Program-made: the position numbers and the translations under genes
Shown: positions 1,598 through 36,260 of the stretch, one piece after another
How the letters are laid out: every line of letters begins with the position of its first letter
How positions within the stretch are numbered: position 1 is the first letter of the stretch
The notes under the pieces: model-generated
Told to the model about the DNA's origin: nothing
Databases searched by the model: none
The model's input: the letters and a program-made list of their open reading frames with translations, nothing else
Source: a virus
Lineage: Duplodnaviria > Caudoviricetes
Strand: one strand, 5' to 3'
Virus record (IMG/VR): IMGVR_UViG_3300036798_000368
Location: 1 to 39,611 of that record
Length of the DNA: 39,611 nucleotides

Positions 1598-2510
1598 AAA
1601 TGGGAGACAAGTTGCCGTGACGCCCTCCCGCGCGTCAATCACCGAAACCATGGCGTCTAAATATGGCATGTCGGCGGCGCCGTTCGAGGCCACGGTGCGG
1701 GCCATGTGTTCGCCGCCTGGCAAGGCGCTTACTCGCGAGGAATTCGCCACGTTCTTGCTCACCGCGAACAAGTACAACCTCAACCCTCTGATGCGCGAGA
1801 TTTACGCGCTCCCAAAAAAAGGCGGCGGGATCATCCCAACTGTATCGATCGATGGATGGATGCACTTAGCCAATGCCCATCCCGCATTTGACGGCCTGGA
1901 ATTCGAAAGCGATTTCGATGACGACGGCACGCTCATTTCGACGACATGCATTCTCCATCGCAAGGACCGGGCACATCCCACCCGGCTCACCGAACTTTTT
2001 TCAGAATGTTTCCGTGATACGGACCCATGGAAGGCCATGCCAAATCGGATGCTCCGCCATAAGGCCGCAATTCAGGCGACGCGGTATGCCTTTAGTTTTG
2101 CGGGCATTTACGATGAAGACGAAGCCGCGAGATTTGCGCAAGAGGTCCCGGCCGCCGTCGCATCCCTTAGGGCTAACCACGTCCGCGCCGAGGAATATCC
2201 AAAGGACGAAAGCAACGTGCCGGAAGCTCCAAAACACGACGTGGCAGAACTCACCACGGACGAGGCCGCGGGCCGCCTCAAGGACATGCTCGACGCGCGC
2301 GCGGCCGAACTCCCAAGAGATCATACGGTATGGCTCGAAGCCCTAAAGGCCGAGGCTCACGTAAAGGCCCAGCAAGGCTTCAAACTCTTTTCTCAATGGG
2401 CAAACCATCTAAACAAGCCCGAGGCCAAACTTCTTGCACCCTATATGGATTCCTATCGCCAAGAAGCCACCTATGCGGACAACGCGGATAAAGGACAGGA
2501 ATCCGCTTAA
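1578..2510 (+). CDS. bet: Phage single-strand annealing protein (Bet/RecT family)
   Basis: YNLNPLMREIYALP...VSIDGW...HRKDR...PW..MPNRMLRHKA.IQ..RYAF..AGIYDEDE motifs. Confidence 0.9.
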   Translation: MNTNPIENGRQVAVTPSRASITETMASKYGMSAAPFEATVRAMCSPPGKALTREEFATFLLTANKYNLNPLMREIYALPKKGGGIIPTVSIDGWMHLANAHPAFDGLEFESDFDDDGTLISTTCILHRKDRAHPTRLTELFSECFRDTDPWKAMPNRMLRHKAAIQATRYAFSFAGIYDEDEAARFAQEVPAAVASLRANHVRAEEYPKDESNVPEAPKHDVAELTTDEAAGRLKDMLDARAAELPRDHTVWLEALKAEAHVKAQQGFKLFSQWANHLNKPEAKLLAPYMDSYRQEATYADNADKGQESA

Positions 2511-2554
2511 ATGAGCCGGCGCCCCGCCCACTTCACCCAAGCTATGGCTTCCGC

Positions 2555-2917
2555 ATGAGCCAGGATATTTACCACATGGGGGATGTTGCCGAGAAGCTCG
2601 GCAAGTCCCGGCGCTGGCTGCAGGATTTCCTTCGCGAGAACCCTTGCGGCCGCATGGCCGGCAGAACGCGCTTGTTTACCTCGGCCGATCTTGCAACACT
2701 GATCGACGCTCTCCCGAAAGTGGAAGCCGCACGATGCCTCTCTCGCTCGTCCCGCCAAAACCTGACCGCACACCGAACTATCGCATCCGTGGAACGTACC
2801 TCGGAATCCGAGTGGACCGAAGCGCTGAAACTCGTGACAAAGCCAAGGCGCGCAAGCTGCTCGCAGCCATTGAGACAGCGATCGAACGTGGTGCTTTTGC
2901 ACAAAAGCCAGCCCTGA
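2555..2917 (+). CDS. Excisionase-like HTH protein overlapping the integrase 5' end
   Basis: MGDVAEKLGKSRRWL...GRTRLFT winged-helix pattern; immediately upstream of int. Confidence 0.6.
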   Translation: MSQDIYHMGDVAEKLGKSRRWLQDFLRENPCGRMAGRTRLFTSADLATLIDALPKVEAARCLSRSSRQNLTAHRTIASVERTSESEWTEALKLVTKPRRASCSQPLRQRSNVVLLHKSQP

Positions 2918-3720
2918 CTCTGGCAGCGGCCGTGACATCATATATCCAGGCGGGCGGCGAGAGCCGCTTCCTAGGGCCGATCTTGCGATATTTTGGGAAG
3001 GGCGCGACGGTCGACGAGATCAATCAGGCGGCGGCCGACGCAGTGGCGGCCGCCATCTATCCGCGGGCGAGGCCAAGCACGCGCAATCGTCAATTCTACA
3101 CGCCATTGCTTGCCGTTCTAAGGCACGCCGGGATAACGGCGATGATCAAGCGCCCCAGGGGCGCGGCGGGGAATGCCCGGGCGGCCTGGTTGCGCCCTGA
3201 GCAATTTGAAAGGCTCGCCAAGGCGGCCGCGCGGGAAGATTTGGAATTTTCCTGCCTTGTGACGCTCTTGTGTTTCACCGGCCTCCGGCTCGGCGAGGCG
3301 CTCGGCCTCCGGCGCCAAGATATAGACCTCGATCAATCCGCTGCTTTTTGCGGGAGGACCAAGAACGGCGAGCCGCGCCTCGTCTATCTACCGCCGCGCG
3401 TCGTCGCCACGTTGGCGAATCATCCGCGCGGGCTCGATCGCGACGAGAGGCTCTTCCGCTGGACCAAGAACGGAGAGTTATATTTGCTAGCCGAGAGGTT
3501 CTATGGGGCCGCCGGCGTCGATCATGGCGGGGCACCGTTCCACATTCTGCGCCACACCTACGGCGCCTGGATGACCAGGATAGGCGCCGATCTCGTTGCC
3601 ACTGGCGCTTGGAAAAGTGCCACGGCCGCGCGCGGTTATCAGCATTTTTCGTTCAGCGAGGAAGCGCGAAAGGCGGACGCGCTGCCAGGCTCGGGACGTG
3701 CGCCACACGTGCGCAAATGA
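2734..3720 (+). CDS. int: Tyrosine recombinase / phage integrase
   Basis: TGLRLGE (R), TKNG (K), HILRH (HxxR), W and RGY (catalytic Tyr); followed by attP. Confidence 0.93.
   Translation: MPLSLVPPKPDRTPNYRIRGTYLGIRVDRSAETRDKAKARKLLAAIETAIERGAFAQKPALTLAAAVTSYIQAGGESRFLGPILRYFGKGATVDEINQAAADAVAAAIYPRARPSTRNRQFYTPLLAVLRHAGITAMIKRPRGAAGNARAAWLRPEQFERLAKAAAREDLEFSCLVTLLCFTGLRLGEALGLRRQDIDLDQSAAFCGRTKNGEPRLVYLPPRVVATLANHPRGLDRDERLFRWTKNGELYLLAERFYGAAGVDHGGAPFHILRHTYGAWMTRIGADLVATGAWKSATAARGYQHFSFSEEARKADALPGSGRAPHVRK
3692..3716 (+). repeat. 25-bp direct repeat, left copy (putative integrase arm-type sites)
   Basis: CGGGACGTGCGCCACACGTGCGCAA identical to 3889-3913; built of ACGTGCG units. Confidence 0.75.
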
Positions 3721-3747
3721 ATAAGCTATTGAATATAAATGAGAAAA

Positions 3748-3797
3748 ACTCCCTTGGTAAGGGAGAGGCCGAGAGTTCAATCCTCTCTCGCAGCACC
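3748..3797 (+). other. attP: attP core: 3' half of tRNA-Thr(GGT)
   Basis: Anticodon arm CTCCC-TTGGTAA-GGGAG, T arm GAGAG-TTCAATC-CTCTC, acceptor 3' strand TCGCAGC-ACC; no D arm or 5' half; just downstream of int. Confidence 0.9.
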
Positions 3798-3864
3798 CAG
3801 CAAATCATTGATTTATTTGCCACTTGCTATTTTGCGCACATTGCCTGTCCGGCAGTTGATAGCG

Positions 3865-3879
3865 GAACGGCGCAAGAAC
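3865..3879. promoter_or_regulatory. Alphaproteobacterial LexA (SOS) box
   Basis: GAAC-GGCGCAA-GAAC(A) = GAAC-N7-GAAC. Confidence 0.65.
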
Positions 3880-3888
3880 AAACACGTG

Positions 3889-3913
3889 CGGGACGTGCGC
3901 CACACGTGCGCAA
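3889..3913 (+). repeat. 25-bp direct repeat, right copy (putative arm-type sites)
   Basis: Identical to 3692-3716; an extra ACGTGCG at 3884-3890. Confidence 0.75.
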
Positions 3914-3914
3914 T

Positions 3915-3929
3915 GTTCATGAGTCGTTC
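3915..3929. promoter_or_regulatory. Alphaproteobacterial LexA (SOS) box
   Basis: (T)GTTC-ATGAGTC-GTTC = GTTC-N7-GTTC; 18-bp identity with 4350-4367. Confidence 0.75.
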
Positions 3930-3977
3930 GCTAGCGGCAATGATACGCAGTTACCAAGAATTGAAGGATTACACGCT

Positions 3978-4154
3978 ATGACCGAGGCCCAAGAGCGCGA
4001 ATTTATCGAGGCGATAGCTAAAAGGTTCATGGAAGCCAGACTTATTTTCGCGACCGTCAAGCCCCTCATCGAGAAGGCGATCGCCGACGCCGTGTTCGAA
4101 TATGCCGAGACCGGGCTCTGGCCGGACGAAAGCAAGAGAAAATCATGCGAGTAA
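3978..4154 (+). CDS. Small hypothetical protein downstream of SOS boxes
   Basis: GAAGGA RBS then ATG; MTEAQEREFIEAIAKRF... Confidence 0.6.
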   Translation: MTEAQEREFIEAIAKRFMEARLIFATVKPLIEKAIADAVFEYAETGLWPDESKRKSCE

Positions 4155-4408: not shown

Positions 4409-4706
4409 GGATGGTCTTCTCCGCAAGATCGCGTTGGCGCGGCGCGCAAGGGCGCGGCGCTTCCGCGAGCGCAAAATGAGCGCGGGCGACGAGGCGGCGC
4501 CGCCTTCGCACATGAGCCGCGCCTCGCGGGCCTATGCCGACGGCTATACGGCGGCGTTCCAAGGCCTTCGCGCCGAGGATGATATGAGGCGCCCGGACAT
4601 CGACGGGGCGACCTCGGCCTATGAAGCTTATGTGGCCGCCCGAGATCGCGACGAGTATAATCGCGGGTATTTGGAGGGCGACGCGGCGCGGCGGGGGGAG
4701 GTATGA
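4407..4706 (+). CDS. Hypothetical protein, probably translated from a leaderless mRNA
   Basis: ATG 6 nt after the predicted -10; MDGLLRKIALARR... Confidence 0.55.
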   Translation: MDGLLRKIALARRARARRFRERKMSAGDEAAPPSHMSRASRAYADGYTAAFQGLRAEDDMRRPDIDGATSAYEAYVAARDRDEYNRGYLEGDAARRGEV

Positions 4707-4936
4707 CCGACGAAGTCCTCGATTTCCTCCGCGAGAAATTTACCCGCCTCGATAACCGCCTCGATCGCATCGAGCTGCGTTTGGGAGAGGTAATCTTACG
4801 CCTCGGCCAACTGGAGCGCGATATCGCATCGATCAAGGTCGATCTTGCGAACCTGCAGACGCGCATGGATAATTTCGACCAGCGCCTGGCCCGGGTCGAG
4901 CGCCGGCTCGATCTGCAAGAAGCCGAAGAAAAATGA
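4703..4936 (+). CDS. Small coiled-coil protein
   Basis: Heptad pattern LDNRLDRIELRLGEV...LARVERRLDL; GGAGG RBS; ATGA overlap. Confidence 0.75.
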   Translation: MTDEVLDFLREKFTRLDNRLDRIELRLGEVILRLGQLERDIASIKVDLANLQTRMDNFDQRLARVERRLDLQEAEEK

Positions 4937-4963
4937 GCCTCAAATTTTTCGGTTAGTTTACCG

Positions 4964-4992
4964 TTGAAAGACACGGCGGCTGCGGCTATAAG
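4964..4992 (+). promoter_or_regulatory. Sigma70-type promoter
   Basis: TTGAAA-N17-TATAAG upstream of the Pro-rich gene; hairpin CGCCCGC-GATTCT-GCGGGCG at 4998-5017. Confidence 0.55.
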
Positions 4993-5043
4993 CGAATCGC
5001 CCGCGATTCTGCGGGCGCAATCCCCCAACAAAAGGAGCACTAC

Positions 5044-5562
5044 ATGGCAGGGCGTCAGGTCATGATCATCGGCGAAATGTTTGACCCAAGCCTCAGCGTC
5101 GGCGGCGGCCCCGTCTATCCGCCTCCCGGCGTCCCGACACATCCGATCGCCCCAGGCGGTCCAGCGTGGTGGCCCGGAAGCCCGCCGCATCCCATCCCGC
5201 CGACCGTATGGCCGACGCCGCCAGGAGGTGGCACGGTCCCTCCGGGTTTCTGGGGAGGCGTCGCGCCGCCACATGTCGATATTGGCTTTCCCAGCCCGCA
5301 ACCCGGCCCGTCACACCCGATCGTGCTGCCGCCGGGAACACCGAAGCCGCCACTGGGCATATGGTCTGAGCCGATCCTGCCGCCGGAAATCTGGGGGCCG
5401 AACGATCCTCGCCCGACCCAGCCGATCTACATTTGGGGCGATCCGATCAAACCAGCAGAAAAGCCCGAAATTTTGGACTGGCACGCGGGATGGTCTATTC
5501 GGACCGGCTGGGTAATTTTTGCCGTTCCGAACGTTCCGGCACCGACCCCAAGTAAGGCCTGA
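5044..5562 (+). CDS. Proline-rich protein with PxHPI-type repeats
   Basis: AAGGAG RBS; PTHPIA, PPHPIP, PSHPIV, PTQPIY; ends tail-to-tail with the holin. Confidence 0.75.
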   Translation: MAGRQVMIIGEMFDPSLSVGGGPVYPPPGVPTHPIAPGGPAWWPGSPPHPIPPTVWPTPPGGGTVPPGFWGGVAPPHVDIGFPSPQPGPSHPIVLPPGTPKPPLGIWSEPILPPEIWGPNDPRPTQPIYIWGDPIKPAEKPEILDWHAGWSIRTGWVIFAVPNVPAPTPSKA

Positions 5563-5856
5563 CTACTCGTCCTTTTGCCCCTTGAAATACATCGCGACGA
5601 TCGCTGAGAACGCCGCAATCAGGGCGCCGACCAGGATATCGCCGCCTTCCGACACCTTGCCGACGAACATGTAGGCGATCGTGCTTATGAACGCGACGAC
5701 AATCAAAAACGCCATGAAGTCGCGGGTCGGGACGCGGAACGCCGGCCCTTGGCGGATCGCTTGATAGACCAGCAACATGATGAACCCGACGATCAGGATC
5801 ATCCCGGCGATCGCGGCCGGCCCGATCGGCAACGGCTTCAGCGCCATCTCGTCCAT
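5563..5856 (-). CDS. Putative holin (3 TM helices)
   Basis: Three hydrophobic segments and a charged C-terminus KGQKDE; downstream of the endolysin; two Met codons (MDEM). Confidence 0.6.
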   Translation of the reverse strand: MDEMALKPLPIGPAAIAGMILIVGFIMLLVYQAIRQGPAFRVPTRDFMAFLIVVAFISTIAYMFVGKVSEGGDILVGALIAAFSAIVAMYFKGQKDE

Positions 5857-5875
5857 CGCTAGGCGCCCCCTTTCC

Positions 5876-5950
5876 GCCACGGCACAACACGGCACTCCAC
5901 ATCACCGCACAACACGGCACAATACTGCACTGCACATCACGTCACAACAT
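5876..5950 (+). repeat. Array D: 15 x NN-CAC pentamers (putative stand-alone guide RNA)
   Basis: GCcac GGcac AAcac GGcac TCcac ATcac CGcac AAcac GGcac AAtac TGcac TGcac ATcac GTcac AAcat; strict 5-bp phase. Confidence 0.9.
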
Positions 5951-6138
5951 CACTTGCTTTTCCCGCGCATGGACCCCTTTCCCGAAGGCGCCGTCCGGCT
6001 GGCCGCGACTTGCCGCGGCGTCGAGGGCGAGTGCGCCTTGCTCGACGTCGGCGCGGCGTGCGCGCACATGTCGTTGACCGGCTTCGAATTCACCGCGGGC
6101 TTGGCGTAATGGTCGGGCTTGTCGGTGAGTTTAGGCAA
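5950..6138 (-). CDS. Small basic hypothetical protein
   Basis: AAAGGA RBS then TTG overlapping the lysozyme stop; ends ...SGKGSMRGKSK*. Confidence 0.55.
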   Translation of the reverse strand: MPKLTDKPDHYAKPAVNSKPVNDMCAHAAPTSSKAHSPSTPRQVAASRTAPSGKGSMRGKSK

Positions 6139-6574
6139 TTTCGATTCCTTTCTTGAACATCGCATATTCCTTCCGCCGCCGCCCCTGAATCTCCGGCGGC
6201 TTGTTCCAAAACAAAATGGCTTCCGCCGCGCTTAGATGGTCGCCAGCATTGAGCCGCTTGACGACGGTCGAGCTCTTGAAGCCGCCGGCGCCGATGTTGA
6301 AGGCCAGCGACACCAGCGCGTCGAATTGCATTTGCGAGATCGGTACCGTGACAGATTCATTCACCGCCTTTTCGAAATGCGCAAGATCGCGCGCCAAAAT
6401 CTCGTGCTCCTCGTCCCGTGTGATGGTCATCCCCGCACACGGCACCGGCGGGCTGCCGGCCTTCGCCGAATGGCCGATGCCGATCGTCCAGACCCCGACC
6501 GAGTCCTTGTAGGCGGTCAGCCTCGACCCCTCAACCTCGATCAGGTGCTTGCGTCCGGCAAGGCTCATATGCAT
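6131..6574 (-). CDS. Endolysin, GH24 phage lysozyme
   Basis: E-x8-D-x5-T catalytic triad (EGSRLTAYKDSVGVWT); FDALVSLAFNIG; GRRRKE. Confidence 0.93.
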   Translation of the reverse strand: MHMSLAGRKHLIEVEGSRLTAYKDSVGVWTIGIGHSAKAGSPPVPCAGMTITRDEEHEILARDLAHFEKAVNESVTVPISQMQFDALVSLAFNIGAGGFKSSTVVKRLNAGDHLSAAEAILFWNKPPEIQGRRRKEYAMFKKGIEIA

Positions 6575-32389: not shown

Positions 32390-32887
32390 TCACTGATCTG
32401 CTGGATCATTGCCTTTTGGTCGCACTCCCAGGATCGCGAAGGCCCGCTCGGCGCCATCGATTACCGCGATCTCGACCTGGGTTTTCAGCCGCCGCGTCGA
32501 CAAGGTCTCGAGGGCGCGCTCGTTCCAGATCGTATAGAACGAATGCGCCCGCGCCTGCTCGAGCGAAAGCACCTCCGTCTTTTCGTCCTTGAGAAAGCCC
32601 TGCAGCCGCTTGACCTGGCGCTCGGCCTTTTTAAATCCGCTCGGATAGCTCGTGGTTATCTCGCCCGGCATCAGGCGCTTCAATCCGACCTTGGGAATGG
32701 CGCGGAAATGGATGCCGAAGGTCCGCCGCAGATAGCCGCGCGCGCTGGCGATCTTGCCGTCCGCCCCGTGCGGGACGCGCGCCCCGGCGAGATCGGCGAG
32801 GGTCGAGCGCGCAATGCTTTCGCCCTCGTTCAGCGCCTGCAGCGCATCGATGATCTTGGAGGTGGCCTCGGAACGGGTCGGGATCAT
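32390..32887 (-). CDS. Putative winged-helix accessory protein of the RAMP/array locus
   Basis: AAAGGAG RBS directly after array C; IIDAL...EGESIARSTLADLAG...GIHFRAIPKVGLKRL. Confidence 0.6.
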   Translation of the reverse strand: MIPTRSEATSKIIDALQALNEGESIARSTLADLAGARVPHGADGKIASARGYLRRTFGIHFRAIPKVGLKRLMPGEITTSYPSGFKKAERQVKRLQGFLKDEKTEVLSLEQARAHSFYTIWNERALETLSTRRLKTQVEIAVIDGAERAFAILGVRPKGNDPADQ

Positions 32888-32904: not shown

Positions 32905-33214
32905 ATGCCGTGTCGTGTTGTGGGGTGCAGTGTCGTGGGGTGAAGTGCCGTGTCGTGGGGTGGGGTGATGTGATGTGTGATGGGGTGTTGTGCCGTGTCG
33001 TGCTGTGGGGTGTCGTGTTGTGAAGTGATGTGAAGTGCTGTGCGGTATAGTGATGTCGCGTGGGGTGCTGTGTGGTGATGTGGGGTGCAGTAGCGTCCTG
33101 TGTTGTGTTGTGGCGTGCGGTGTCGTGTGGGGATGTGGGGTGGCGTGCGGTATCGTGGCGTGGGGTGCAGTGCGGTGGCGTGCTGTGAAGTGACGTGGCG
33201 TAGCGTGGCGTGCT
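32905..33214 (-). repeat. Array C: 62 x NN-CAC pentamers (putative guide RNA array)
   Basis: GTGNN on + strand in unbroken 5-bp phase over 310 bp; starts 4 nt after the RAMP stop. Confidence 0.92.
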
Positions 33215-33218
33215 GACA

Positions 33219-33797
33219 TTACGTCGCGCCTGTTGGAGTTTCGGACCAGACGAATTTGGTGCATTTGAAGCGGCCGCTCGAGCCGCCGTTCTCCGGCCGG
33301 TTCTGGCCGACCCCGACGAGCAGCCCAGCCTCGTTCGCATGCTGCTCGAACACCGCCGGGGTGATCGTCTCGTCGACGACGATCACCTCGAGCTCGCCGC
33401 GCCAGGCCTTGACCTCCGGGAAAAACCGCACCACCCGCTTGCCGGAGCCGGCGACGCCATCGGCGTTGCAGCTCACCGCGATGCGGCCGACTTTCTCCTT
33501 CTTTTGGCCGACCGGAACACCAGCGGGCACCATCACGCCGGCCATGAAATGCTTAGTGTAGGTCGCCTTGCCGCGGTTCTTGATCTGGATCGACAGCATC
33601 TTGGCGGCGCGGTCGAAGGCTTTTTTGAACGCCGCCGCCGGGATCATGATTTCGCCATTGCCGTCGGTCGTGCATTTCTCCCGCCAGGTCCGCTCCTCAT
33701 AGGCGTCGGGGCCTTCTTTCTCTAGCTTCTCAGTAAAGTGCTGGCGGCTCTGGTAATAGGGCGCCCGCGATTCCATTGTGATCATGCATTTTTTCAT
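33219..33797 (-). CDS. Stand-alone RAMP/Cas7-like protein (192 aa)
   Basis: N-terminal beta strand, IMIPAAAFKKAF (cf. RAMP IPxSxxKG), W.G.L.V strand, Gly-rich loop AGLLVGVGQNRPENGGSSGRF; AAAGGAG RBS; flanked by arrays. Confidence 0.75.
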   Translation of the reverse strand: MKKCMITMESRAPYYQSRQHFTEKLEKEGPDAYEERTWREKCTTDGNGEIMIPAAAFKKAFDRAAKMLSIQIKNRGKATYTKHFMAGVMVPAGVPVGQKKEKVGRIAVSCNADGVAGSGKRVVRFFPEVKAWRGELEVIVVDETITPAVFEQHANEAGLLVGVGQNRPENGGSSGRFKCTKFVWSETPTGAT

Positions 33798-33811
33798 GTT
33801 TCAGCTCCTTT

Positions 33812-34116
33812 GTGTTGTGACGTGCGGTGCAGTGAAGTGGAGTGCTGTGGGGTGCAGGGCCGTGTGGTGCTGTGTTGTGCCGTGGCGTGACGTGCCGAGT
33901 TGTGTCGTGCCGGGTCGTGCCGCGATGTGCAGTGACGTGGGGTGACGTGAGGTGCGGTGCTGTGGCGCGATGTGCAGTGCTGTGATGTGGCGTGATGTGA
34001 TGTGGAGTAGAGTGTGGTGCGGTGTGTTGATGTGATGTGGAGTGGCGTGAGGTGCCGTGACGTGAGGTGCCGTGCAGTGTCGTGCGGTAAGGTGCAGTGC
34101 AGTGCAGTGGCGTGAG
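33812..34116 (-). repeat. Array B: 61 x NN-CAC pentamers (putative guide RNA array)
   Basis: Unbroken 5-bp phase over 305 bp; ends directly in the RBS of the RAMP gene. Confidence 0.92.
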
Positions 34117-34126
34117 GGGAGAATCA

Positions 34127-34336
34127 TCATGGCGAAGGATCCTCCTCCGGATCGAGCGCATCCGCCCCGGTCGGCTCGAGGAGCCGCGTCAGGATCGCGA
34201 CCACCGCCCGGTCGACATCGCGCTCGAGCCCTTTCGCCCGGGTCAGGCCCTCCATGCTGCGCTCGCGAAAATATTCCTTCTGGGCATCCCGCATGCGGCG
34301 CACCAGCAGCGCCAAATCCCGTAGCTCGGTGTTCAT
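34127..34336 (-). CDS. Small helical hypothetical protein between arrays A and B
   Basis: LVRRMRDAQKEYFR...AKGLERDVD. Confidence 0.65.
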   Translation of the reverse strand: MNTELRDLALLVRRMRDAQKEYFRERSMEGLTRAKGLERDVDRAVVAILTRLLEPTGADALDPEEDPSP

Positions 34337-34360
34337 GATGTCAAACCTCGCGCTCCTATT

Positions 34361-34525
34361 GTGTTGTGTCGTGCAGTGCCGTGCCGTGACGTGCCGTGGT
34401 GTGATGTGACATGTTGCGACGTGACGTGGCGTGAGGTGGCGTGGAGTGGAGTGCGGTGCGGTGCCGTGGCGTCCTGTGATGTGCTGTGGGGTGCGGTGCG
34501 GTGCAGTGTTGTGATGTGACGTGAT
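34361..34525 (-). repeat. Array A: 33 x NN-CAC pentamers (putative guide RNA array)
   Basis: Unbroken 5-bp phase; starts 15 nt after the terS stop; followed by AATAGGAG. Confidence 0.92.
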
Positions 34526-34540
34526 GAAAAGCGGGCATCG

Positions 34541-34876
34541 TCAGGATCGAACTCCGGTCAAAACGTTGACGATTATCGTTTGCCGCGGGTCGCTGCTATC
34601 GCCGTCGAACGGCGCCGGCCTTCCCCAGGCATAGGCCAGAACATCCCGACACGCCGCCGCGCGCACCGTCTCGACCTTGGCATGGAGTGCCAACCTAATA
34701 AGTTCCGCCGCCACCTTCGGCGCCGCGTCGATCGCGAGCTGACGCCCTAGCCGCTCCGAGAGCTTGCCGAGCGGCCGGCCGCCCTTCTTGCCGTTTTCCG
34801 CCGAGGCCTTGGCCTTGGCCGCCGAGGCGCCTTCGAACGGCTTAAAATGCCGCGTTCCGGGCAGGCTTCCGGTCAT
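34541..34876 (-). CDS. terS: Probable terminase small subunit
   Basis: ENGKKGGRP, ELIRLAL.AK.ETVR.AA...AWGRP, C-terminal IIVNVLTGV; first late gene, upstream of terL once the insertion is removed. Confidence 0.6.
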   Translation of the reverse strand: MTGSLPGTRHFKPFEGASAAKAKASAENGKKGGRPLGKLSERLGRQLAIDAAPKVAAELIRLALHAKVETVRAAACRDVLAYAWGRPAPFDGDSSDPRQTIIVNVLTGVRS

Positions 34877-35564: not shown

Positions 35565-36260
35565 TCAGGTCTCCTTTGGCACCTTGGCGCCAAACAGCTG
35601 TTTGGCGGCGGGCGAAAATTGCACCGGCTGGTCGCGATAGGCGGCGAGCTTCGCCTCGTCGAGCGCCGGGATGGTCGCGTCTCCATTGCCCGGCCGATCT
35701 CTGGCCTTTTTCGCCTTGCTTTGCGCGCTAGCCCGCCTCTCCAGCGGGCGCGGCGACGCGCGCGGCATTCTGGTAGAAAGATTCAGATTAGACTCTGGTT
35801 CTGGTAGTGGGGGGAAATTTTGCTTGGATTTTTGCTTGAAATTTTGCTTGGATTTTGCTTGAGGTTTTGCTTGAGGTTTTGCTTGGCGCACCACCGTTGA
35901 TTTTATTCCACCTTCCCGCCCAGATGCCACCCTTTCCCTGGCTTTTTTCAGCTCACGTTCTACGCGATTATGGCGCCACATTCCGATGGGGTTATCGGGG
36001 GGTATATCGGGGGGTATATCGGGGGGTATATCGGGGGGTATATTCTCAAAGTACCCTTCCAGAAATGGCCGTAAGCGCTTCCATTTGTTGACATGCACGC
36101 GAACCAGCCTAGCTAAAGTTTTATCGTCGGAAAAAAGAGGGCCACCGTTTGTCCAATAGGAATCAATTAGGCGCCGATAGGCCCCGTCTTGTTCAAGCGA
36201 AAGGGCCATCGTGTCGCGCAAATAATCGCCCGGATAAAACGGGAAATGATTGAGGCTCAT
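35565..36260 (-). CDS. DUF1376/YdaU-type replication initiator
   Basis: FPFYPGDYLRDTMALSLEQDGAYRRLIDSYW..GGPL; internal iterons. Confidence 0.82.
   Translation of the reverse strand: MSLNHFPFYPGDYLRDTMALSLEQDGAYRRLIDSYWTNGGPLFSDDKTLARLVRVHVNKWKRLRPFLEGYFENIPPDIPPDIPPDIPPDNPIGMWRHNRVERELKKARERVASGREGGIKSTVVRQAKPQAKPQAKSKQNFKQKSKQNFPPLPEPESNLNLSTRMPRASPRPLERRASAQSKAKKARDRPGNGDATIPALDEAKLAAYRDQPVQFSPAAKQLFGAKVPKET
35818..35885. repeat. 6 x TTTTGCTTG iteron-like repeats (candidate origin)
   Basis: Copies at 35818, 35830, 35842, 35853, 35865 and 35877. Confidence 0.75.
35993..36040. repeat. 4 x 12-bp tandem repeat TATCGGGGGGTA
   Basis: Perfect tandem copies encoding IPPD x4. Confidence 0.85.

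Follow-up and report, generated by a model that had tools for sequence, protein, structure and literature searches.

A detached, probable VIPR guide array of the CAC type beside a near-matching gene end in its own phage genome

VIPR systems have been described in recent preprints, cited here from the portions of text available, as weapons against satellites, prophages and other VIPR systems. The type II VIPR of Escherichia phage SUSP1 and that of a Pseudomonas fulva prophage (10.64898/2026.04.26.720920, 10.64898/2026.04.26.720927) are phage-borne and comprise a RAMP protein, a DNA-binding accessory gene and guides made of 5-nt repeats with a variable dinucleotide (NN). One Vipr protein binds each repeat and the resulting filament blocks transcription without cutting (10.64898/2026.04.26.720920, 10.64898/2026.04.26.720927). 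The guide is read by a skip-one code, in which the skipped nucleotide is aligned to the wobble base; silencing works from either strand, and no self-target at ≥80% was reported in the clades tested (10.64898/2026.04.26.720920). R-loop assembly starts at the 3' end of the guide (10.64898/2026.04.26.720927). A six-unit footprint of vrRNA4 works in SUSP1, and guides that target vrRNAs match rivals better than self (10.64898/2026.10.15.759431). Variant units of the form CAC/NN have been described beside a Vipr-like fold (10.64898/2026.10.21.760802), and solo vrRNAs, which lie away from vipr, are known from F5 satellites and VIPR-null phages of the SUSP1 family (10.64898/2026.10.15.759431). Thus the skip-one code, the CAC/NN units and the solo guides are already in the preprints. 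Outside VIPR, the free-standing homing endonucleases of phage T4 show intronless homing and marker exclusion (PMC2988022).

We analysed a viral DNA record of 39,611 nt (IMGVR_UViG_3300036798_000368), the whole of which is called the window below. This phage genome is circular, has a terminal repeat of 127 nt and encodes terL, a major head gene and an endolysin. Its VIPR cassette contains the following features.

32390..32887, minus strand: vap-like accessory gene, with a winged-helix-like N-terminal domain plus helices (weak matches, E 0.01 or worse)
32908..33212, minus strand: array C, 61 units, between vipr and vap
33219..33797, minus strand: vipr (RAMP/Cas7-like), with a profile match to the solved SUSP1 Vipr (36pp_D, E 1.5e-5)
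33810..34114, minus strand: array B, 61 units, upstream of vipr
34359..34523, minus strand: array A, 33 units

The profile behind the vipr match (A1) was built from 45 of the 371 homologues of the product. The Vipr model has a pLDDT of 92.8, and its best fold matches are type VII Cas7 and Csm3. The vap-like family has 100 distinct homologues in Vipr loci. No homing nuclease was among the fold matches of the Vipr and vap models, and the vap-like model showed no nuclease fold. There is no CRISPR-type repeat among the repeats listed in the window, and the Vipr-family RAMP protein lies outside a CRISPR locus. Arrays A-C are tandem pentamers of a fixed trinucleotide and a variable NN, are co-oriented with vipr and extend to the next ribosome-binding site. 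The homologous RAMP protein, the DNA-binding accessory gene, the 5-nt repeats with NN and the 1-nt skip at the wobble base are shared with the systems of SUSP1 and the P. fulva prophage, as far as these are described in the text available; those systems use GGY whereas CAC is used here, and no conserved pseudoknot tail is evident here. The CAC/NN repeat beside a Vipr-like fold is shared with the non-canonical clusters (10.64898/2026.10.21.760802), but the available text on these gives neither targets nor detached arrays. The cassette also includes a 69-aa gene (34130-34336, minus strand; phrog_15937), placed between arrays A and B.

Four 5-nt periodic CAC/NN arrays were found in the window, A-C on the minus strand and D on the plus strand, and no further run of four CAC units was present. 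Array D is detached from the operon and, unlike the guides of SUSP1 and the P. fulva prophage, lies beside a near-match in its own genome.

5873..5947, plus strand: array D, a detached, vrRNA-like CAC/NN guide of 14 CAC-type units and one degenerate leading unit
5947..5985, minus strand: full target-like site of array D; an extra Gly codon at 5962-5964 shifts guide units 8-12 out of register
5950..6138, minus strand: gene of a 62-aa basic protein with a TTG start, whose C-terminus is spelled by guide D
5966..5982, minus strand: exact skip-one match to guide D units 2-7, codons GKGSMR with the wobble base skipped (12/12 nt)

The 14 CAC-type units (5878-5947) include 13 exact ones, and the degenerate leading unit occupies 5873-5877. 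An earlier reading of this DNA, made from the sequence only, had listed the dinucleotides of the array, and the string is exactly as listed there. It had also placed the array in CAC orientation on the plus strand. This is the sense orientation, as 110 of the 112 distinct CAC arrays in Vipr loci, which come from viral contigs and genomes, are on the vipr strand; the plus strand is thus the guide strand, antisense to the lysis genes. Use of the array in the GTG orientation on the late mRNA was rejected on the same ground, since the arrays of the clade are CAC on the vipr strand. We assign array D to a VIPR system, with units of the non-canonical CAC type and without an evident tail; the stretch 5860-6000 folds worse than its shuffles (z +2.06). 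Of the 112 CAC arrays of Vipr loci, 69 have AA or GA in the last unit and 82 in the penultimate one, and for this reason the last 2-3 units of array D are probably a non-targeting end. The array was said to be far from the RAMP gene. This is so on the linear record (27 kb), but on the circular genome the distance to vipr is 11,565 bp. A solo vrRNA is defined by the lack of vipr on the contig or within 20 kb (10.64898/2026.10.15.759431). Array D fails this definition and is not a solo vrRNA, although by analogy it may work like one. The targets of solo vrRNAs in the available text are REP elements, vipr, vrRNAs and satellites, whereas here the putative target is an allele of the gene next door.

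The claim that units 2-7 match codon positions 1 and 2 of GKGSMR held true. This match lies 19 nt from the end of the array and is the only skip-one run of at least five units that array D has within the window; no such run was found under skip-0 or skip-2, and one five-unit run under skip-3. The match was also said to resume after one skipped codon and to continue through the stop, and it does: with codon 5962-5964 skipped, units 2-12 match the gene end at 21/22 nt. Units 1-12 score 22/24 when the gap is allowed and 16/24 without it. The final triplet of the match, TGT beyond the stop, already belongs to the array itself, being the reverse complement of its end. The guide was proposed to encode AGKGSMRKGK-stop. 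This is a possible reading but one of several, since AA can stand for K or N, AT for I or M, and TG for C, W or stop.

It is conceivable that the real target of array D is an unrelated element and that the neighbouring match arose by chance. Six-unit runs do arise by chance for longer arrays; array B has one under skip-0, and array C has one under skip-one at 2655-2671. Metagenome sites unrelated to this gene reach 22/24 against guide D without a gap. For array D, the six-unit run alone is not significant window-wide, and significance comes from proximity and the gapped extension. In the shuffling test that the sequence-only reading had proposed, a run of at least six units in the 100-nt flanks was reached by 9 of 20,000 unit shuffles, and a gapped score above 17/22 by none of 400 (observed 21/22). 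In addition, the alignment follows the wobble positions of a real ORF and ends at its stop, the layout recurs in other loci as described below, and no pattern match in the viral contigs or metagenomes extends to 12 exact units. We thus consider a chance match very unlikely. The match of array C involves its units 9-14 and is exact; it lies on the plus strand inside a small HTH-like gene (2555-2917), which precedes an integrase-family gene. Given the 61 units of array C, this match could be by chance.

The small gene is placed in the lysis neighbourhood, together with the following features.

4964..4992, plus strand: candidate sigma-70 promoter by sequence (TTGAAA-17-TATAAG)
5563..5859, minus strand: holin-like membrane protein with three hydrophobic stretches by hydropathy and weak Pfam matches only
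6131..6574, minus strand: endolysin (phage lysozyme; PF00959, E 8.7e-36)

The product of 5563..5859 is inferred to be holin-like from its position. The 62-aa protein has no Pfam or PHROG family. The gene has an SD-like sequence before its TTG start, a GC3 of 0.87 and a product with one protein homologue (P0121, 77% identity), and it is judged to be real on these grounds. P0121 ends in RKGKG, and this RKGK end equals the reading of the 3' half of guide D; the homologue fits the 3' half only. A promoter at 4964-4992 had been proposed to reach array D by read-through. The motif is present, but the consensus scanner listed another site (4845-4873) instead. The candidate promoter could drive 5044-5562 and, by read-through, array D; the transcript must cross the holin-like gene antisense. 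No plus-strand terminator was called between 4600 and array D, and back-to-back stop codons at 5560-5565 are compatible with read-through. The gene at 5044-5562 (plus strand) encodes a proline-rich 172-aa protein without a family match, is convergent with the lysis genes and has many variable relatives in both soil metagenome runs (X1 and X2), of which X1 may be the source of the window.

The position of the site might fit another role, self-repression in cis. Vipr loaded with guide D would bind the six exact units next door, and the roadblock would delay the holin-like gene and set the timing of lysis; array A would likewise reduce the read-through that enters the vipr cassette. The contiguous 12/12 self-match at 19 nt from array D is consistent with this idea, as are the working six-unit footprint in SUSP1 (10.64898/2026.10.15.759431) and the location of the site between the endolysin and the holin-like gene, given that VIPR silences from either strand (10.64898/2026.04.26.720920). 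Against it stands a relative in run X2. This contig (depth 6.7) covers 5872-6110 with six differences in 239 nt and no gap. Five of the differences are listed (5978, 5980, 6022, 6058 and 6061) and the sixth is not displayed. Position 5978 is a read base (Lys to Arg) and 5980 a skipped base, both in the guide footprint, and none of the listed changes is in array D. The X2 carrier therefore matches its own guide less well within the six units while it keeps the extra codon. Furthermore, a regulator would have no need for the fit of units 8-12 to the gene, which persists past the gap; local matches in the other cases lie beside portal, HNH and helicase ends and have mismatches spread along the site; and in the text available on published clades no self-target at ≥80% was found among those checked (10.64898/2026.04.26.720920). 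We consider regulation in cis unlikely. Since the six exact units left in the resident site equal the size of the working SUSP1 footprint, escape by the resident allele is not certain.

The same X2 relative diverges to the left of 5872, with 41 differences and 10 gaps over 5730-6192. This indicates that array D moves with the small gene and independently of the holin-like gene. A second X2 relative aligns on both sides of 5728-6115 and not inside. A 9-nt direct repeat flanks array D (5866-5874 and 5974-5982). It was rejected as a target-site duplication, for the left copy overlaps, and would itself serve as, the probable ribosome-binding site of the holin-like gene, and it is lost in the X2 relative. 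RNA self-folding of array D onto the downstream site gave no stable structure.

The sequence-only reading had called array D an independent second case of a guide sitting at its target, and array A, too, is found at a target-like site. The terS C-terminus lies directly upstream of this array, whose late units spell a variant of it.

34551..34570, minus strand: terS C-terminal site matched by array A (13/14 nt; 18/3000 shuffles)

Among ten terS homologues, the I read from guide A is found in 4/10 and its later G in 8/10, where the resident has L and S; the closest homologue (88%) has L and S as the resident does. Of the 85 matches of the array A pattern in viral contigs, none was terS or beside terL by tblastn. 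In a contig of run X2 that matches 5878-5916 of the window, a CAC array runs directly into a frame resembling the terL start of this phage, which suggests, from the sequence, a relative with its cassette between terS and terL.

Local placement was then surveyed in 346 de-duplicated arrays from Vipr loci, of which four are from the window. A skip-one match within 150 nt at p≤0.005 was found for 10/346 arrays, and none was found under skip-0 or skip-2. When the top 13 were shuffled 3000 times, six arrays from outside the window stayed at ≤4/3000 (two in L183 and one each in L066, L148, L181 and L207). The cassettes of L181 and L183 resemble each other in layout, and these loci are possibly not independent. 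L246, L191, L147, L162 and L209 weakened to 14-99 of 3000 shuffles and were dropped as cases. Without the arrays of the window, 8/342 passed a 100-shuffle test (p≤0.0099) in the nearest 150 nt where 3.4 were expected, and further bands gave 3/342, 0/325 and 2/320; the enrichment is confined to the nearest 150 nt. With the unit order reversed, 2/342 passed. The local-match effect is real and concerns about 2% of arrays. Both orientations occur, and in the strongest cases the target is within about 70 nt of the array.

Mismatches between guide and resident site were compared in six cases selected by hand, of which two share a contig; L181 and L207 were left out. On the best reading, 18 of 21 were conservative (null 9.7, P 1.5e-4), and five were synonymous first-position swaps of Leu or Arg codons (null 1.5, P 0.009). 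As the mismatches are mostly conservative or synonymous, the guides spell protein alleles. A self-derived guide that aged while its gene drifted would also give conservative mismatches. In L183 (IMGVR_UViG_3300046517_002064), a CGC/NN array (2224-2303) immediately follows its target-like site and is in frame within the ORF of a 459-aa helicase-like protein; a second array, past the stop, addresses the helicase C-terminus, and several mismatches are synonymous Leu/Arg swaps. L246, on a Xanthobacteraceae contig, has a detached 23-unit CGC array (629-743) on the strand opposite vipr and 5.4 kb from it, a layout like that of array D. Diverse CAC arrays on fragments (L024/L088, L026, L043, L078, L081, L084 and L114) had no Vipr match in the contigs searched and are candidate solo guides.

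Empty sites were found for two other cassettes. In L148 (G001), a complete 1.66-kb VIPR cassette (4501-6162) separates the 3' end of the portal gene from a small HTH-like gene; among 11 portal loci compared, L435 and L437 lack this cassette and have the portal end joined directly to the far-side gene. In L066, a 1.6-kb cassette (2482-4092) with a 70-unit array lies at the end of an HNH gene; among 16 HNH loci, L420 lacks it, and the junction is the end of the guide target. The guide matches the empty site at 19/22 in L435 and L437 against 18/22 in the carrier G001, and at 21/24 in L420 against 20/24 in L066. L420 has the D, F and I of the guide at three of the four units mismatched in L066, but carries a two-base mismatch of its own. 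The empty-site alleles thus beat the carriers by one base only, and a perfect target is not among them; the scores of more distant homologues do not exceed 16.

These cases also bear on the idea that the match is a relic of guide writing. Arrays would be templated from the DNA beside which they arise or insert, and D would once have been a perfect copy of the ancestral gene end, which then mutated away to escape. This needs no present rival target and is compatible with a guide that acts in trans. It accords with the short distance (about 70 nt) in the strongest cases, with the end of the L066 target at the cassette junction, and with the in-frame array beside the target-like site in the L183 helicase ORF. 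On the other hand, no guide-writing enzyme is evident (vap is winged-helix-like), about 98% of arrays have no local match, both orientations occur, and the empty-site relatives match the guide at least as well as the carriers do. Such an origin seems to us rather unlikely.

If array D acts in trans, a relative should carry a better-matching allele, and the database search suggested for it by the sequence-only reading gave 12 pattern matches in viral contigs and 41 in metagenomes, none of them a homologue. The 12 matches to an eight-unit pattern of guide D in viral contigs included none homologous to the small gene by translation, and the 41 matches to a nine-unit pattern in metagenomes included none to it better than E 0.22 by tblastn. 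Many of the 41 belong to a single conserved family of host proteins. The best viral match (L002) has 10 exact units; it is out of frame in a genome of 36% GC and was treated as chance. Searches for related loci gave no relative among 25 candidate stretches of viral contigs and 67 candidates in metagenomes. The small gene had four tblastn matches in 50,697 phage records, all at E 3 or worse, and HMMER over 1.84 billion proteins returned P0121 and two repeat-rich long proteins only. An empty site for array D was not found among its relatives. In L380, L381, L384, L403, L410 and L411, a spacer-like stretch between repeats, which we take to be CRISPR-like, matches guide D over 10 units, probably by chance.

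Taken as a whole, it is rather probable that array D is a trans-acting guide against alleles of sister phages, linked to its own resistant allele in a nuclease-free system resembling marker exclusion. The evidence for this consists of the shuffle tests, the membership in a VIPR system, the layout of array A and terS, the survey, the conservative mismatches, the empty sites and the X2 relative that keeps array D with the small gene. The evidence against it includes the six exact units left in the resident site, the one-base margin of the empty-site alleles, the small share of arrays with a local match, and the fact that a sensitive allele of the small gene was not found in viral, metagenome or protein searches. 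A Vipr homologue is present in this phage along with CAC/NN arrays, of which array D is on the plus strand in the loading orientation. Read-through from 4964-4992 would transcribe it, antisense across the holin-like gene. If the published mechanism applies, one Vipr would bind each repeat, the NN bases would pair with DNA and leave out each third base, and the filament would block transcription and leave the DNA uncut. The target would be a relative's allele that ends roughly in GKGSMRKGK-stop between the endolysin and the holin-like gene, and binding there would block the rival's lysis transcript. The extra codon would uncouple the 3' units of the guide, where the SUSP1 R-loop starts, from the six matching 5' units, and the mismatched resident copy likely escapes. 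The guide may lie beside the resistant allele because recombination in a mixed infection must not part them. The pair would then spread jointly at this locus, in the manner of the free-standing homing endonucleases that cause marker exclusion.

Like the T4 homing endonucleases (PMC2988022), array D adjoins the gene whose allele it would address in a related phage, and empty sites exist in relatives, here for the two other cassettes. Unlike them, its specificity would lie in an RNA guide. Array D resembles a free-standing homing element but is not one, because no nuclease was found. It is possible, though doubtful, that VIPR guides in general act between sister phages as a gene drive that is programmed by RNA and needs no nuclease. 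The guide, by itself or as part of its cassette, would lodge beside a gene or in frame inside it and address the rival allele; the Vipr roadblock would bias survival or recombination so that the guide and the recoded allele replace the empty allele, and one vipr might serve several satellite guides around the genome. If this is true, the adjacency would be a first handle on how VIPR guides are written.

We found no paper on VIPR guides beside an allele of their target. The available text of 10.64898/2026.10.15.759431 makes no mention of alleles, homing or recoding, and its supplementary tables 16-18 may bear on adjacency. In the literature as available to us, what appears new is the placement of the guide beside its near-match gene end. 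Guides beside a recoded copy of the addressed gene suggest competition at the level of alleles between near-identical phages and a homing-like spread without cutting. The adjacent pairs are ready guide-target pairs for CAC-type Vipr, for which no tested target was found in the accessible literature. The placement makes it testable how much mismatch or gap protects self and how new guides originate.

Elsewhere in the window, 12-nt tandem repeats, presumably iteron-like, are found at 35814-35885 and 35988-36043 within a replication-initiator-like gene (35565-36260). The fixed trinucleotide in arrays of Vipr loci is CAC, CGC, GGC, GAC or CTC, and in the loci L163-L292 a single Vipr clade uses CGC, CAC, GGC, GAC, CTC, GTC and ATT. 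This variety is useful for mapping the specificity residues of Vipr.
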